A program made the position numbers and the translations under genes. Under the pieces are notes generated by a model, which did no database searches, was not told where the DNA came from, and saw only the letters and a list, made by a program, of their open reading frames with translations. From the NCBI GenBank assembly GCA_965219995.1, contig CBDCOX010000002.1, positions 608,001 to 672,000 on the forward strand: a stretch of DNA of 64,000 nt, read 5' to 3'. How positions within the stretch are numbered: position 1 is the stretch's first letter; each line of letters begins with the position of its first letter. The DNA comes from Candidatus Latescibacterota bacterium. GTDB lineage: Bacteria; Latescibacterota; UBA2968; GCA-2709665. This document shows, one piece after another, positions 16,537 to 23,499 of the stretch.

Positions 16537-16790
16537 TTCTGGGTAGTTCCGGACTGCCGGTTTCGAAGCTCGAAACTGCCCCCCCATCGGGGTGGCGTTG
16601 TCGCATGGCATTCAATGAACGACGCCTTTCAAGTTGTCCTTTCTCCCCCGGAAGAAGCCGTCTGAAGACGCGGGCTGATCGTTTGTCACTCACCACGCAT
16701 CTCCTCCGGCCCCGCGGTCATTTGCTGACGCCTTGTGTTCTGTCCCGGTATCCATTTGCAGGACGGGACACGCAAAAAGGGGTGGGTCGT

Positions 16791-17822
16791 ATGTTCCAGT
16801 TACAGCAGCGGGAAGCAGCCATACTGAATATCCTCATCAGTACCCATGTCAATACCGGCGAGCCGGTCGGTTCGCGCGCCATCGCCAGGTCGGGGCTGGG
16901 TCTCAGTCCCGCCACGGTGCGCAACTCGATGGCCGATCTGGAGGAGAAGGGCCTGCTGACCCATCCGCACACGTCGGCCGGTCGCGTGCCTACCGATAAG
17001 GGCTACCGCTATTACGTCGACAGGGTGATGCCCAGACAGACGCTTGAGGAGGAGGAACGCGAACAGATCCGCGAGCGGGTACGGGCATACGTACGGGAGG
17101 GCGACGTCGAGGTTCTGCTTGAGCAGATGTCGAGACTGATCGCCGATCTTTCGATGAATCTCGGAATGGTACTCTCGCCCAGGTTCGAGCAGGGGGTATT
17201 CGACAGGCTGGAAATGGTCCATCTGTCGGAGGGCAGGCTGCTGCTGGTGCTTGCAATCAAATCGGGCCTTGTGAAGACAATGGTCATGGAGGTGGACTCG
17301 GCGATCACGCCCGGCGAACTCGACGAGACGTCACGGGCGGTGAACGAACGCCTTTCCGGGCTCAGCGTGGCGGACATCAGGGATTCTGTCGCCGAGCGGC
17401 TCCGTGAGGTCTCGAGCGGGTCTCCCAGACTGCTTCGTGTGCTGTGCGACAGCGCGTCCAACCTCTTCCGGTTCCAGAGCGGCACGGACCTGCATTTCGG
17501 CGGGGCCGGCAACTTTATCATGCAGCCGGAATTCAACCGAAAGCAAAACGACCTGGCCGCCCTCATGGAATTGCTGGAAGCCCGGGAACCGATGATTACC
17601 ATCCTGGACGAACGGACCGAACGGGACGGGATTTCCGTCACGATCGGCACGGAAAACGGTCCGCCGCAACTTCGGGGCTGCAGCGTGCTGACGTCGCGAT
17701 ACCGGGTTGGCGCCATTTCCGGGGTAATCGGGTTGATCGGCCCGACCCGGATTCCGTACGCAAGGCTGATTCCATTAACCCGTTACATGGCGGCGCTGGC
17801 CGAGGAAATGCTGGATCATTAG
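16791..17822 (+). CDS. hrcA: Heat-inducible transcription repressor HrcA
   Basis: EPVGSR, SPATVRNSMADLE, PHTSAGRVPTDKGYRYYVD, IGPTRIPY. Confidence 0.95.
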   Translation: MFQLQQREAAILNILISTHVNTGEPVGSRAIARSGLGLSPATVRNSMADLEEKGLLTHPHTSAGRVPTDKGYRYYVDRVMPRQTLEEEEREQIRERVRAYVREGDVEVLLEQMSRLIADLSMNLGMVLSPRFEQGVFDRLEMVHLSEGRLLLVLAIKSGLVKTMVMEVDSAITPGELDETSRAVNERLSGLSVADIRDSVAERLREVSSGSPRLLRVLCDSASNLFRFQSGTDLHFGGAGNFIMQPEFNRKQNDLAALMELLEAREPMITILDERTERDGISVTIGTENGPPQLRGCSVLTSRYRVGAISGVIGLIGPTRIPYARLIPLTRYMAALAEEMLDH

Positions 17823-17843
17823 CAGGAGGACAACCACGCACAT

Positions 17844-18461
17844 ATGGCGGAATCTGACGAAGTCAACGGCAAGGAAGGCTGCGAGGAAACCAGCGAAGCG
17901 GAAGTTCGCGAGGACGGGGAAGCGTCCGGGGAAGAAGACGCGCCGGACCCGCTCGAGGAAGCGCTCCGGGAGTCTGAAGAGTACAGGGATCGGTGGATGC
18001 GGCTGGCGGCGGAGTTCGAGAATTACAAGAAACGGAGGTCGAGGGAATTCGATGCCCTGGTTCATTCGGCCAGCGAAAACCTCATTCGGGAACTGCTGCC
18101 GGTCCTCGACTCGGTTGCGCGAGCGCTGGAACACCGCGACGACGGCGAGGAAGAGTCCGACGGTTTCAAACAGGGCGTCACCATGATCATGGAGCAATTT
18201 CCCAAGGTCCTCGAGCGCCGGGGCCTTTCCGAGATCGACGCTCTTGGCCGGCCGTTCGACCCCAACTATCATGAAGCGTTGATGCAGATGTCTTCAGACG
18301 AACACGCGGAGGGGCTGGTGATGGGCGTGGTGGATCGGGGGTACCGCCTGGGAGACAAGGTGATCCGGCCTGCAAAGGTCGTTGTGAGCGGCGGGAGTGC
18401 GGCAAAGGAACCCGATAGCGAAGAAGACGCCGGGAAAGAGTCTGAAGCGCGGGAATCCTGA
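17844..18461 (+). CDS. grpE: Nucleotide exchange factor GrpE
   Basis: [39 protein letters not shown]. Confidence 0.95.
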
Positions 18462-18474
18462 GCAGGAACGGAAA

Positions 18475-19632
18475 ATGTCCAAACGCGACTATTATGAGGT
18501 CCTCGGACTGCAACGGGAAGCATCCGAGAACGAGATCAAAAAAGCCTATCGCAAACAGGCGATGAAATTTCACCCCGATCGGAACGCCGGCGATGAGGAG
18601 GCCGCGGCCAGTTTCAAGGAGGCCGCCGAGGCGTACGAGGTCCTGAGCGATGCCCAGAAACGCCGGGTGTACGACCAGTATGGGCATGCGGGCCTGGGCG
18701 GCCCGTTCCAGGGCGGTGGATTTCAATGGTCCGACTTCACGCATGCGACCGACTTCGAGGATATTTTCTCCAACCTCGACGACGTGTTCGGAGGCGGGAT
18801 TCTGGGCGATCTGTTCGGCCGTCGCGGCGGCCGGCGGGGCCCTCAGCGCGGGGAAGACCTCCGCATTCCGCTCCGGCTGACCCTCGAGGAGATTGCGTCC
18901 GGCGTCCAGAAGAAGATCCGGTTCGCCCGGATGGACCGGTGCGACACATGCGGTGGAACCGGGGCCCGGTCCGGGTCGGCCGCCACTACCTGCAGCGTCT
19001 GCAACGGCATGGGGCAGGTGCGCCAGGCCACGCGTTCGCTTTTCGGGCAGTTTGTGAACGTCACCACGTGCCCTCAGTGCAACGGAGAGGGCAGGGTGAT
19101 CGGCGACCGTTGCTTCGACTGCGGGGGCGACGGCAGGGCGAAGAAGACCGTCAGTCTGTCCGTGAACATACCGGCGGGCGTCACCGACGGAAACTATATC
19201 CCGTTGCGGGGCCAGGGCAGCGTCGGGCCGCGGGACGGCGAAGCCGGCGACTGCATGGTGCTGATCGAAGAGGAGGAGCACGAGTATTTCGAACGGCATG
19301 GCAACGATATTCTCTATGAGTTGCCGATCAGTTTCAGCCAGGCGGCGCTCGGCGCCGAGGTCACTGTGCCCACGTTGAGCAGCAGGGCGGAAATGAAGAT
19401 ACCTCCGGGAACGCAGTCCGGGCAGGTCTTTCGTCTGAAGGGCAAGGGGATCCCCGAGTTGAACGGGTATCGGACCGGAGACCAGCTCGTACGCGTGATG
19501 GTCTGGACCCCCGCCCGTCTCAATGAGGAAGAGAAGACGTTGTTCAGGCAACTCGCCGAACTCGAGAATATCCAGCCGCCCGAGGGCGGCAAGGGGATAT
19601 TCGAACGCATGAAGGAGGCGTTTGGCGGGTAA
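18475..19632 (+). CDS. dnaJ: Chaperone DnaJ
   Basis: [13 protein letters not shown] region, four CxxCxGxG repeats. Confidence 0.97.
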
Positions 19633-19707: not shown

Positions 19708-21144
19708 TCAGGTCAGCCCTGGAAACAGGGGCTGGCCTTTTCTGATCTCAACCCTCGAGAAACCGGTTTCGATTCGTTCAGCCGTGCCCGGGAGAAAGGG
19801 TCTCAGGACCCATGAAATGGCGCGGACCGATCCCACCCAGGCCGAGAGGTGTTGTTCGAGCTTCCCGGCCCTTTGCCCTTTCAGAAGTTCCCATGGGCGT
19901 ACCGCGTCGATTTCACGGTTCATGTCGTCCACGCGCCCCCAGACTGTCTTGAGGGCCCCGGCAAAGTCGAAACGGTCCAGCGCGTCCGTCACGTCCGGCG
20001 GAACCCGGAATTCGGGCGTTGCCGCCCGACCGTAACCGCACCTTTCGCAGAGAGATTCGAGCCGTCGCACGAGATTGCCCAGGCCGTTCGCCAGGTCGGT
20101 TCTGTAGATTTGCCGAAGTCCGGCTTCGGAGACGTCACTGTCTCCTCCGGAACGGACGGCGCGCAGGAGGTAGTAGCGGACGGCGTCAGGGCCGTATCGC
20201 CGGATCAGCGGGAATGGATCCACGGCGTTGTCCAGCGACTTGCCGATCTTGCGGCCTTCAACGGTCAGATGGCCGTGGACGAAGACGGCCCGGGGCAGCG
20301 GCAGGCCGGCTGAGAGCAGCATGGCGGGCCAGTAGACGGCGTGGAATTTGAGGATGTCCTTTCCGATGACGTGGACCTTGTCGGGACAGTCACGCCAGTA
20401 GCGTCCGAAATCTCCACTGTCCGAGCCGTAGCCGAGTCCCGTGAGGTAGTTGGTCAGAGCGTCGAACCAGACGTATACGACCTGGGTCGGATCGCCGGGC
20501 ACGGGCACGCCCCAGCCACCGGACCGATTCCGATTGCGGGAAACGCTGAAGTCCCGCAGGCCCTGCCTGATGAACCCCAGCGCTTCGTTTCTCCGCGTTT
20601 CCGGGAGTATCCGAAGCTCCCCGGATGTGATAAGGTCTTCCAGCGCCTCTTGATAGGAGGACAGGCGGAAGAAATAGTTCGTTTCTTCGACGGTCTCGGG
20701 TTCGACACCGTGAACAGGACACCGACCGTCCGAAAGGTCCCGTTCCAGGTAGAAGTCCTCGCATCCCACGCAATACAGACCGCGGTACTGTTTGAGGAAG
20801 ACGTCCTCCTGCCGGCAGGCCGACCAGAATCGGGATGCGCCGAGGACGTGGGTGTCCGTCGAGGAGCGAATGAAGCGGTCGAACGAGATGTCGAGGGCTT
20901 CGGCGAGGTTTTTGAAGACAGCGGCATTCCGCTCGCAGAGTTGACGCGGCTTCAGGCCTTCCCTGGCGGCGGCCTGCACGTTTTTGAATGCATTTTCGTC
21001 GGTCCCGGTCAGGAAGAACGTGTCGTGGCCCAGAAGCCGGCGCCACCTGGCGATCACGTCGGCCTGTACCAGCTCCAGTGCGAAGCCCAGATGGGGGCGG
21101 GCGTTGACGTAAGGGATGGAAGTCGACACATAGGAAGTCTCCAT
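19708..21144 (-). CDS. metG: Methionine--tRNA ligase, short atypical form (HLGF and KIGKS motifs)
   Basis: IPYVNARPHLG, FLTGTDE, YCVGCE zinc knuckle, YVWFDAL.NY, IGKDILKFHAVYWPAML, LANGLGNLV.R; RBS AAAGGA. Confidence 0.9.
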   Translation of the reverse strand: METSYVSTSIPYVNARPHLGFALELVQADVIARWRRLLGHDTFFLTGTDENAFKNVQAAAREGLKPRQLCERNAAVFKNLAEALDISFDRFIRSSTDTHVLGASRFWSACRQEDVFLKQYRGLYCVGCEDFYLERDLSDGRCPVHGVEPETVEETNYFFRLSSYQEALEDLITSGELRILPETRRNEALGFIRQGLRDFSVSRNRNRSGGWGVPVPGDPTQVVYVWFDALTNYLTGLGYGSDSGDFGRYWRDCPDKVHVIGKDILKFHAVYWPAMLLSAGLPLPRAVFVHGHLTVEGRKIGKSLDNAVDPFPLIRRYGPDAVRYYLLRAVRSGGDSDVSEAGLRQIYRTDLANGLGNLVRRLESLCERCGYGRAATPEFRVPPDVTDALDRFDFAGALKTVWGRVDDMNREIDAVRPWELLKGQRAGKLEQHLSAWVGSVRAISWVLRPFLPGTAERIETGFSRVEIRKGQPLFPGLT

Positions 21145-21164
21145 GGCATGTCCTTTCCAATTGC

Positions 21165-21201
21165 AAAAAAAACCCACCGCCGATGAATCGGCGGTGGGTT
21201 T
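21165..21201 (-). terminator. Attenuator terminator in the metG leader
   Basis: Perfect inverted repeat AAACCCACCGCCGAT/ATCGGCGGTGGGTTT with a run of 8 T on the minus strand, about 20 nt before the metG start. Confidence 0.9.
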
Positions 21202-21229
21202 GTCGGTTCGAATCTACGTGTGATTCAGT

Positions 21230-21388
21230 TCAGGTCAGGGGATGTTTCGCCGCCGAAGTTCCGGAAGTAAAGGTGGCCATCATGTACATGGGAATATCGA
21301 CGGCGCCAGTCCGCGTCGCGTCGTTCGGTACGGCTGAGGATCGCCGGGGTTTTGGCGATCCGTCATTTGAGAATTGAACAGACGTCAT
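21230..21388 (-). CDS. Putative 52-aa metG leader peptide with a Met cluster (MYMM)
   Basis: RBS CAGGAG, then MTSVQFSNDGSPKPRRSSAVPNDATRTGAVDIPMYMMATFTSGTSAAKHPLT*; lies between promoter and terminator. Confidence 0.75.
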   Translation of the reverse strand: MTSVQFSNDGSPKPRRSSAVPNDATRTGAVDIPMYMMATFTSGTSAAKHPLT

Positions 21389-21415
21389 TCCAGTCTCCTG
21401 TATTCGGTACGAGAG

Positions 21416-21444
21416 AATATAGAATGCGGGCCACGAATTGTCAA
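21416..21444 (-). promoter_or_regulatory. Sigma70-type promoter of leader-metG
   Basis: TTGACA-17 nt-TATATT on the minus strand. Confidence 0.75.
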
Positions 21445-21477
21445 GTCCAGTGGGTTTTGTTGTACAGTCATTCTAGG

Positions 21478-21880
21478 CGACGTCAAAAAGCACCTATCGA
21501 AACGTGGTCATTGAGCTTGTCGAAATGCCCGTATTCCGGAATTCCGTCGACACACACGCCGTCTCGTCATGCCCTTCTGGCCGCAAACGTGCCGCCTTCC
21601 AGGCTCGCGATACGTACCAATCACGCAGCCATCAACCGATGCCGCAGTAGATCCTTCGTCGGCCGGCCTGCCAATAATTCTCTGGCAGGCCGGCTTCCTC
21701 AGGATGACAGTTTTGGCAAACGTGTGACTGAACCGTCTCGCTTTATGGATATTGCAAAACCTGTCATTCTGAGCGCAGCGAAGAATCTCCCGTCTTCTCA
21801 ATCGTCCCGGACACAGCAACGCGGGAAACACATTGGCGCGGACACATCACCGGTTTGACGGCCTCCTCATGATGGCAGTC
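21478..21880. repeat. Composite REP/MITE-like element, copy 1
   Basis: Modules GGTCATTGAGCTTGTCGAAATGCCC, CCTCAGGATGACAG and TGTCATTCTGAGCGCAGCGAAGAATCTCCCGTCTTC; colinear with the reverse complement of 56254-56628. Confidence 0.75.
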
Positions 21881-22041
21881 AGATTGCCGATTCTGCATCT
21901 TACCCTTGTCCTTTTCTCGGTATGGGCTTACATTGACGCAGACGGGAAAACCGGCGGCCGGCATCACGGTTTCCCGATTTCGCGCCTCTACAGGGCGTAG
22001 AATTACTCGTGCGAACACCTTGAAGGAATAGGGGACCGCTT

Positions 22042-23091
22042 GTGCTTTATTGGCTGGGAGAACGATTTGCCGATGTGTACGGGCCCTTACGGCTCTTGAC
22101 GTCCTATCTGTTTCTGGCCGTTCTGGGCACGGCGCTGGCGGGGCTTTTTACATGGCGTCTGCTTCCGAGGCTGTGGATGCGGCTGCCCAAAGACCGGGGC
22201 CGCGCGTACGCCGTCGAGAACGAGCAGAGCCACGGCAAGCCCGTTGGCGCGGGCGTGATCTTCATCCCCATCTATCTGGTCGTGTGTTTGCTGATTCTGC
22301 CGCCGGGTTCCCAGTACTGGCAGATTCTGGGCTGTCTGTTTCTCGCCATGCTGGCCGGTTTCCTTGACGATCGAAGTCCGGGAGGATGGGGCGAGTACCG
22401 CGTGGGAGCCATCGACCTGGGCATTTCCCTGCTTGGCGCAATGGTTATCTGCCAGCTGGAGTCCGTCGAGCTCTGGCTGCCGCTGATGAAGACGCCGGTT
22501 CTGGTTCATCCGTGGATATTCGTGCCCGGAGCCGCGCTATTGATCTGGGTTTCAATCAATGCCACCAACTGTACGGATGGCGTGGACGGGCTGTCGGGCA
22601 GCCTGAGCGTCCTCGCCTTTATCTATCTGGGCGTCATTCTATACGGGATTGTGGGGCACACGGACATTGCCAGGTACCTTCTCGTGCCGCACTATCCCGA
22701 TGGCGCGGTGTGGGCGCTGTTCGCATTTGTCATGGCCGGGTGCCTGGCCGGATATCTGTGGTACAACGCCTATCCCAGCGCCGTGATGATGGGAGACGCG
22801 GGGTCCCGGCCGATGGGTTTCCTGCTCGGTATACTCGTTCTTGCGTGCGGCAATCCGTTTCTGATCGTCGTCGTCGCCAGCGTGGTCCTGGTGAACGGGG
22901 CCACGGGATTGTTGAAAGTGGCGCTGCTCCGGTTTCTGAAGATCGGGATCTTCCAGACGGTTCGATATCCGCTTCACGATCACTTCCGGCACAAGAACGG
23001 CTGGTCGAATACGCACGTACTCGTGCGTTTCATTCTGCTCCAGGCGTTCGTGACGCCGATTCTGCTGGTGCTGCTGGTTAAGATACGATAG
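22042..23091 (+). CDS. mraY: Phospho-N-acetylmuramoyl-pentapeptide transferase (stand-alone)
   Basis: GKP.GAG, GFLDD, NATNCTDGVDGL, LWYNAYPS.VMMGDAGS, PLHDHF. Confidence 0.85.
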   Translation: MLYWLGERFADVYGPLRLLTSYLFLAVLGTALAGLFTWRLLPRLWMRLPKDRGRAYAVENEQSHGKPVGAGVIFIPIYLVVCLLILPPGSQYWQILGCLFLAMLAGFLDDRSPGGWGEYRVGAIDLGISLLGAMVICQLESVELWLPLMKTPVLVHPWIFVPGAALLIWVSINATNCTDGVDGLSGSLSVLAFIYLGVILYGIVGHTDIARYLLVPHYPDGAVWALFAFVMAGCLAGYLWYNAYPSAVMMGDAGSRPMGFLLGILVLACGNPFLIVVVASVVLVNGATGLLKVALLRFLKIGIFQTVRYPLHDHFRHKNGWSNTHVLVRFILLQAFVTPILLVLLVKIR

Positions 23092-23136: not shown

Positions 23137-23499
23137 GGAGACGTTAGACGTAAGAGGGGAGAGGAAATGAGTGCCCTATGGTTTTTCTGGTCGTTACGAT
23201 AGCGGTAAATTAGCAGGCACGGTTTATGTGACAAACATTGCTGTAAATGTCTTCATCTACCCTCTACCCTCTACGTCTCACCGGTTTTATTGCCCCGTCC
23301 AGTTTCATTTTGTGCTGGAGGCATAAAAGTAGAACCAATCGGGCAAGGACGTCATCTAACGTCTTGCGTCTCACGTCTCACCGGTTTTATTGCCCCGTCC
23401 AGTTTCAATTTGTGCTGGAGCCATAAAGGAAAAACCAAACGGGCAAGGACGTCATCTACCGTCTACCCTCTTACGTCTAACCGCTTTTATCTCCCGTCC
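23137..23499. repeat. 100-bp tandem repeat (about 2.5 copies) with heptamer blocks and an upstream inverted heptamer block
   Basis: TCATCTA starts recur at 23253, 23352 and 23452; GTTAGACGTAAGAGGG near 23142 is the reverse complement of 23466-23481. Confidence 0.85.

Follow-up and report, generated by a model that had tools for sequence, protein, structure and literature searches.

An auxiliary methionyl-tRNA synthetase (MetRS) gene in a Candidatus Latescibacterota bacterium is preceded by a leader that is probably a ribosome-mediated transcription attenuator, one that would read the charging of elongator tRNA-Met and control the gene behind it. The locus lies on the minus strand of the window, by which we mean the whole 64,000-nucleotide (nt) stretch of DNA analysed here (assembly GCA_965219995.1, contig CBDCOX010000002.1, positions 608,001–672,000). 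The leader consists of a promoter, an upstream open reading frame (uORF1) with clustered methionine codons, and an intrinsic terminator directly before the synthetase gene, which we call MetRS2. Comparison of the sequences shows directly which parts there are, in what order they stand and how well they are conserved, and also that across phyla they accompany auxiliary MetRS genes specifically. A Met-sensing leader-peptide attenuator had been predicted at this site from the letters of the window (the original prediction), and the conserved Met-codon uORFs, the order of the parts and the MetRS association now support it at the level of sequence.

Leader architecture, downstream gene and conservation

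The features of the leader and of MetRS2 are collected in Table 1. The promoter, the Shine–Dalgarno sequence (SD), the 52-codon frame, the MYMM cluster, the terminator and the SD of the synthetase gene, all named in the original prediction, were recovered in place, and so were the heptamer and its complement in the terminator arm. Of the five features that define a leader-peptide attenuator, three can be recognised in the sequence: a uORF with SD and start codon, cognate codons and an intrinsic terminator. Because the SD of MetRS2 starts only 6 nt past the T-run, there is no room for a separate MetRS promoter, and all MetRS transcripts must therefore pass through the terminator. The promoter match by itself is weak, since a promoter scan of 4 kb found two such sites against 1.4 expected from shuffles; its real support is conservation in relatives. 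The fold of the window leader beats those of 200 of 200 dinucleotide shuffles (z = −3.0). Across the whole 5.4-Mb genome there are 801 Met-cluster starts, five of which have a terminator behind them. uORF1 is the sole short-frame case, the other four being the C-termini of frames 107–570 codons long.

Table 1. Leader features and MetRS2, in window positions; every part is on the minus strand
Feature	Position	Strand	Remarks
Promoter, sigma-70 type	−35 21444–21439; −10 21421–21416	−	TTGACA, 17-nt spacer, TATATT; 11 of 12 consensus matches
SD of uORF1, CAGGAG	21400–21395	−	6 nt 5′ of the ATG
uORF1, leader frame	21388–21230	−	52 codons + TGA
Regulatory codons ATG TAC ATG ATG (MYMM)	21289–21278	−	codons 34–37; sole internal Met codons of uORF1
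Region 1, CGCCGUCGA	21305–21297	−	predicted anti-antiterminator strand; minimum free energy (MFE) partner of region 2
Region 2, UCGGCGGCG	21256–21248	−	predicted antiterminator strand; pairs with region 1 or the terminator 5′ arm
Heptamer TCGGCGG	21256–21250	−	21 nt separate it from the last Met codon
CCGCCGA	21194–21188	−	complement of the heptamer, within the terminator 5′ arm
Intrinsic terminator	21201–21165	−	stem-loop 21201–21170, 14 pairs (9 G-C); T8 run 21172–21165
Region 3, terminator 5′ arm	21201–21188	−	
Region 4, terminator 3′ arm	ends at 21170	−	
SD of MetRS2, GGAAAGGA	21158–21151	−	
MetRS2 start codon ATG	21144–21142	−	
MetRS2, auxiliary MetRS	19708–21144	−	478 amino acids, short form without C-terminal tRNA-binding domain; motifs HLGF and KIGKS

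MetRS2 matches Pfam family PF09334 (E = 6.5e-94) and scores 395 bits against TIGR00398 (cut-off 336), and its residues 2–459 align full-length to solved MetRS structures, the best being 2csx (E = 2.6e-107). The protein query used (19708–21147) has one additional N-terminal Ala codon, the true start being 21144. The genome has two MetRS genes. The canonical copy, located elsewhere, encodes 634 amino acids with motifs HLGH and KMSKS and a C-terminal extension past the catalytic core, which we take to be the usual tRNA-binding domain; MetRS2 is 41% identical to it. The gene first read as metG thus does encode a methionyl-tRNA synthetase, but it is an auxiliary second paralog and not the genome's only or housekeeping metG. 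Both H.GF and H.GH forms are found throughout the short-MetRS subfamily, and a short MetRS with the motif HIGF is the sole MetRS of G046 (0.7 Mb), the only reduced genome that we tested. Since the family and structure matches are full-length and G046 relies on a short MetRS alone, the sequence of MetRS2 gives no sign of a dead enzyme.

Of 15 genomes of the genus, the window's own counted, 14 have the MetRS2 paralog, which also occurs in three other genera of the family. We aligned 14 leaders from genus genomes (alignment A1), whose MetRS2 proteins are 75–90% identical; the relatives in this range are labelled as Candidatus Latescibacterota metagenome-assembled genomes. The promoter columns TTGACA and CTAT.T are invariant in all 14, as are the SD core GG.G and the ATG of uORF1. 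The terminator changes little or not at all along its entire length. Met occupies codons 34 and 36 in every leader and codon 37 in 13 of them, the Met-codon total being three in 13 leaders and two in one. Apart from the Met codons and codons that coincide with RNA helices, the peptide is far less constrained: codons 2–33 show two to seven amino-acid types per column, and residues near the cluster vary as well (Y, C or R at codon 35; I, S, P or A before the cluster). GCGGCG of region 2, which encodes two Ala residues, is of a single codon type in all 14 leaders, and several further RNA segments outside the Met codons are conserved in A1. uORF1 is 52 codons long in 13 of the 14; in one relative a 1-nt deletion changes its C-terminus and the RNA sequence is kept. 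Because the peptide is variable, region 2 keeps a single codon type and the frameshift spares the RNA, the constraint appears to act on the Met codons and the RNA and not on the peptide.

One genus member (G012, locus L025) has its MetRS2 split in two frames near residue 137/138, with both of its leader uORFs intact; the split may reflect either a frameshift or an error in sequencing.

Distribution across phyla

We collected 80 loci of short-MetRS relatives across phyla, 78 of which have usable upstream sequence and a clear gene start. L088 was left out for having no upstream sequence and L101 because its match starts at residue 42, and the truncated proteins L102 and L108 were left out of the tree. 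At least three ATG within seven in-frame codons, at up to 450 nt upstream, occur on the sense strand of 21 of the 78 loci and on the antisense strand of four. A coding-sequence segment used as control gave 1/78, and 200 dinucleotide shuffles gave a mean of 1.46 and a maximum of 5. With the distant loci only (40–56% identity), the counts are 14/69 sense and 4/69 antisense. ATGATG within 300 nt upstream is found at 30/78 loci in sense against 3/78 in antisense orientation (200 shuffles: mean 5.1, maximum 12), and one or other pattern is present in sense at 39 of the 78.

The 14 distant loci are labelled as Planctomycetota, Verrucomicrobiota, Chloroflexota, Thermomicrobiales, Myxococcota, Gammaproteobacteria and one actinomycete. 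Their leaders share only the clustering of Met, as in MMMPGAW, MSMAMRS, MPMAMPQ and MGMPMSM, and comparison of these distant leaders found no RNA sequence common to different phyla. A clear hairpin and U-run stand behind the uORF in eight of the 14.

The pattern is specific to the short MetRS: upstream regions of canonical MetRS genes from the same and related genomes contain neither three ATG in seven codons nor ATGATG (0/30). The search for Met-rich uORFs at homologous loci, set beforehand as the refuting test of the original prediction, thus came out in its favour, with such uORFs in all 14 genus leaders and in other phyla too. Another MetRS is present in all five carrier genomes tested from other phyla. 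Among five genomes that fail the three-in-seven criterion, the short MetRS is the only MetRS in two, numbers too small for a firm association, and one of the remaining three (G047, locus L093) has an MM-type ATGATG uORF. On a FastTree protein tree, no fewer than nine changes are required to explain the leader label, against 19.4 with shuffled labels, and the label fills entire clades, for example the PVC clade (4/4). Since related genomes share labels, this result describes clustering of the trait and not the number of independent origins.

Within the family of the window's genome, diverged leaders retain Met clusters in new contexts (MCMM, MRMM, MGMPMSM, YMRMSSSM), and in one homolog with 60% identity MGMPMSM belongs to a different uORF, which is followed by a terminator of its own. 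Some relatives have a second uORF (..FMCMS.., ..YMRMSSSM..) between the terminator and the MetRS gene. It is found in three loci of the same genus (L010, L011 and L025) and, as the only uORF, in two other genera (L022 and L023), where the uORF1 type is not present. The second uORF is placed about 130 nt before the MetRS start, which it overlaps in another frame. All five folds show a hairpin with the Met codons of the second uORF in its 5′ arm and the MetRS SD and AUG in its 3′ arm. From these models the second uORF looks like a translational version of the Met sensor; the window itself is without it.

Conserved short uORFs with two adjacent Met codons were also seen 80–220 nt before the MetRS homolog at 16 loci (L062, L071, L075, L076, L078, L082, L083, L085, L091, L093, L094, L097, L098, L103, L111 and L116), which are Actinomycetota apart from one Dormibacteraeota record. 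They have a motif in common (..MMALPPGP.GV.., ..MMCP.TGHAGL..), and GC-rich hairpins adjoining the SD follow. In a further genome (G037, loci L026/L101), one in-frame TGA is present in a 48%-identical MetRS2 homolog, whose match begins only at residue 40–42; a pseudogene and an assembly error are both possible explanations.

RNA pairing, alternative explanations and the surrounding locus

In the MFE fold of the window, region 1 is paired with region 2 alongside the terminator. The calculated duplex energies in the window are about −20 kcal/mol for the 1:2 helix (−19.6 to −20.2), −14.7 kcal/mol for 2:3 and −26.7 kcal/mol for the 3:4 terminator; 300 shuffles of the 2:3 pair gave −7.5 ± 2.3 kcal/mol, the fraction at least as low being 0.003. 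The footprint of a ribosome stalled at the first Met codon would take in region 1, which is 7–16 nt 5′ of that codon. Region 2, beginning 22 nt past the last Met codon, would stay free of that ribosome.

Whole-leader masked MFE folds were inconsistent in their long-range pairing across species, and we therefore used local duplex and local-fold tests to compare the 14 leaders. In 13 of them the terminator 5′ arm finds its best upstream partner in region 2, in agreement with the earlier proposal that the heptamer acts as antiterminator, and in ten the best partner of region 2 itself is found just 5′ of the Met codons. In constrained folding, suggested along with the original prediction, local folds with the ribosome placed on the Met codons form 2:3 in all 14. 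The ribosome-free fold of the window has 1:2 formed and 2:3 absent. In the proposed check for covarying stems, the terminator is paired in 100% of the alignment cells across the 14 genomes and has one compensatory change.

We infer that uORF1 is translated, that the ribosome can stall at its Met codons, that region 2 is the antiterminator and that Met-tRNA supply is the physiological trigger. Transcription would start at the conserved promoter and a ribosome would translate the 52-codon leader. With plentiful Met-tRNA, the ribosome would pass codons 34–37 and region 2, and region 2 would be taken up either by the ribosome or by renewed pairing with region 1; the 14-bp terminator would form and transcription would end 6 nt before the MetRS ribosome-binding site. 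If Met-tRNA becomes scarce, either through methionine shortage or because the housekeeping MetRS is inhibited or damaged, the ribosome would stall on ATG-TAC-ATG-ATG and cover region 1. Region 2 would then be free to pair with the emerging terminator 5′ arm, no terminator would form and the backup MetRS would be made.

Several observations weigh against this scheme. Ribosome-free local folds show 1:2 without 2:3 in only four of the 14 leaders, the window included. In whole-leader folds with the ribosome on the Met codons, the terminator 5′ arm is paired with region 2 in only three (the window, G003 and G006). G003 and G006 have this pairing in other states too, so that the fold switches in the window only, and in several other leaders it appears only when the ribosome is absent or stands at the stop codon. 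The 2:3 antiterminator has no covariation in the 14 genus leaders, because the helix is invariant in the genus, and the covariation expected for this stem did not appear. In the 1:2 helix only one pair differs on both strands, and the register moves by 3 nt from clade to clade. In eight distant leaders 2:3 energies are no better than those of shuffles (fractions 0.09 to 0.99); the 5′ arm can be engaged in the stalled state in seven of these eight. uORF1 has only three Met codons, and one close relative two. Since Met also initiates the leader peptide, severe starvation would halt the sensor itself. Finally, leader peptides are seldom as long as that encoded by uORF1, whose constant length the model does not explain. 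Because the fold and covariation results are mixed, we do no more than infer the three-helix scheme, which the models support well only for the window and its nearest relatives.

The same caution applies to the off-state. It had been proposed that a ribosome reaching the stop codon at 21230 would mask the heptamer. With 17 nt between the end of region 2 and the stop codon, a distance at or slightly beyond the normal ribosome footprint, such masking is doubtful. As the terminating ribosome probably leaves region 2 unmasked, the off-state would depend on 1:2 re-pairing or on tight coupling, and the modelled pairing makes capture of region 2 by region 1 more likely than masking by the ribosome at the stop.

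It is quite unlikely that the leader instead senses something other than tRNA-Met charging by nascent-peptide or drug-induced arrest of the ermCL or TnaC type, with M-x-M-M acting in the exit tunnel and a ribosome-targeting antibiotic, free methionine or SAM as the signal. Auxiliary synthetases are often resistance genes, and both the long, fixed frame (52 codons in 13 of 14 genomes) and the recurrence of M-x-M(-M) in many leaders would suit such a mechanism. However, the Met codons alone are conserved as amino acids while their neighbours vary, distant leaders have only Met clustering in common, and the exclusive link to MetRS genes suits sensing at the codon level.

We give little credence, too, to protein- or RNA-mediated control with an incidental uORF, be it autoregulation by MetRS2, as in E. 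coli thrS, or an undescribed riboswitch. The leader RNA is structured, as its z-score indicates, conserved RNA segments extend beyond the Met codons, and autoregulated synthetase leaders such as that of thrS (PMC2965389) exist. This explanation, however, leaves the clustering of Met codons and the invariant SD and start codon of uORF1 unaccounted for; no RNA sequence is common to leaders of different phyla, and no Rfam family matches the window or 20 related loci. A T-box leader was rejected on the same searches, having no covariance-model match in window positions 20800–22200 up to E = 10 and none at the gathering score in the 20 related loci. SAM and other riboswitches were rejected likewise, as no Rfam aptamer matched in either set at these thresholds. 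The sole sub-threshold Rfam matches in the window are to miRNA and sRNA models (E 0.1–9) and are driven by the terminator hairpin.

That uORF1 and its terminator form an independent small-protein or small-RNA gene, its Met codons belonging to a functional micropeptide such as a modified-peptide precursor and MetRS being made by constitutive leaky read-through, is very improbable: uORF1 does have its own promoter, SD and strong terminator, and some relatives have tandem paralogous uORFs, as precursor-peptide genes often do, but the peptide is poorly conserved with a frameshifted C-terminus in one genome (for which variability and frameshift we rejected a functional micropeptide), no modification enzymes are adjacent (the neighbours are a convergent dnaJ and a distant glycosyltransferase family 4 gene), no protein-family model matches the leader peptide, and the association is specific to MetRS genes and spans phyla. 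The searches behind this were of Pfam and NCBIfam with the window leader peptide, and of NCBIfam with six leader peptides (E up to 1), all without a match.

The genes around MetRS2 are a convergent row of hrcA-, grpE- and dnaJ-like genes (16605–19632, plus strand; names read from translations and not from a family search) and a divergent glycosyltransferase family 4 (MraY-like) gene at 22042–23091. The 850-nt gap between MetRS2 and the latter holds the leader and a repeat element, a 23-nt inverted repeat at 21651–21705 (core at about 21660, minus strand). Its 17-nt core occurs 35 times in the 5.4-Mb genome, several relatives have a near-identical motif, with one base different, ahead of the leader promoter, and the repeat probably belongs to a dispersed element of the REP or MITE type. 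Further away, two tandem 100-nt direct repeats that are 89% identical occupy 23273–23472, preceded by a partial third copy and flanked by a 20-nt inverted repeat (23143–23162 and 23462–23481); they lie just upstream of, and extend into, the predicted start of an M20-family peptidase gene. Partial matches to 20700–21500 were found in sponge, coral and marine metagenome runs, where they make up small shares and give a habitat hint only; no RNA run is among those listed for this stretch.

Relation to known systems and significance

Leader-peptide attenuation is textbook knowledge for Trp, His, Phe, Leu, Thr and Ile/Val and has been proposed for Cys. In E. coli trpL, a four-region scheme (1:2, 2:3, 3:4) reads two Trp codons, and a stall at region 1 frees region 2. 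The leader described here would follow the same four-region scheme and likewise has few regulatory codons, three Met against two Trp. It differs in its product, a synthetase where trpL regulates a biosynthetic operon, and in the position of the stop codon, which in trpL stands just before region 2, so that the terminating ribosome masks it, whereas here the stop codon follows region 2 at a distance of 17 nt.

In ermC-type translational attenuation, stalling exposes the SD. The second uORF of some relatives could expose the MetRS SD in the same way, as the five folds suggest, although its signal would be Met codons and not a drug-bound ribosome, and the window leader has no such uORF.

Closer in their product are pheST of gamma-proteobacteria and the candidate attenuators upstream of trpS2 and leuS in Streptomyces, which have been likened to pheST (PMC1262725). 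The pheST, trpS and leuS attenuators share with our leader the order of a leader frame with cognate codons, terminator and antiterminator hairpins (the antiterminator being predicted here), and then the synthetase gene. Unlike these attenuators, ours would sense methionine, has a longer leader of 52 codons and belongs to a family found across many phyla. The same work screened aminoacyl-tRNA synthetase operons of Actinobacteria, and reports no methionyl case. Mycobacterial uORFs rich in Cys codons, which regulate downstream cysteine-metabolism genes (10.1101/834739; PMC1262725), are similar in that a short uORF rich in the codons of one amino acid precedes a gene of the cognate metabolism. The mycobacterial uORFs are without obvious intrinsic terminators and control cysteine biosynthesis operons, whereas here a canonical terminator precedes a synthetase gene.

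S. coelicolor has an auxiliary TrpRS, TrpRS1, that is resistant to indolmycin (resistance listed in PMC9437257). Its gene, trpRS1, offers the nearest functional parallel, an auxiliary synthetase induced when charging of the cognate tRNA falls, and the same logic is proposed here. Vecchione and Sello, in J Bacteriol in 2010, are said to have placed trpRS1 under an attenuator with a Trp-codon leader. We know of no inhibitor of, or resistance conferred by, MetRS2, unlike TrpRS1.

A Met-codon leader or attenuator for MetRS was not found in searches of the full-text literature, nor by looking up terms in PMC2965389, PMC9437257 and PMC1262725, although supplementary tables of genome-wide attenuator screens (for example those of PMC2965389 and PMC5314783), outside the coverage of that search, could list some, and searches of Rfam and NCBIfam gave no description of such a leader. 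The multi-phylum pattern of Met leaders therefore appears to be undescribed.

We tentatively suggest a wider possibility, in which Met-codon leaders are a widespread class of tRNA-Met-charging sensors with transcriptional and translational forms, travelling with a horizontally spread short MetRS. Leader and MetRS might then form an inducible unit for backup or self-protection, triggered by inhibition of the housekeeping MetRS by natural products, or by damage to it, and not mainly by Met starvation. The attenuator model itself can be put to a direct test, since Umezawaea endophytica DSM 103496 and other cultured actinomycetes are among the carriers.

If confirmed, the attenuator would add a new amino-acid specificity, methionine, to leader-peptide attenuators, and methionine would be a special case, since initiation of the leader peptide also needs it. 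A cluster of ATG in a short uORF before a short MetRS gene would become an annotation signature, and the leader itself would provide a natural, compact sensor of Met-tRNA charging. It would also mark, in many phyla of which several are mostly uncultured, a second MetRS that is expressed conditionally, and raise the question of what inhibits or overloads the housekeeping MetRS in nature.

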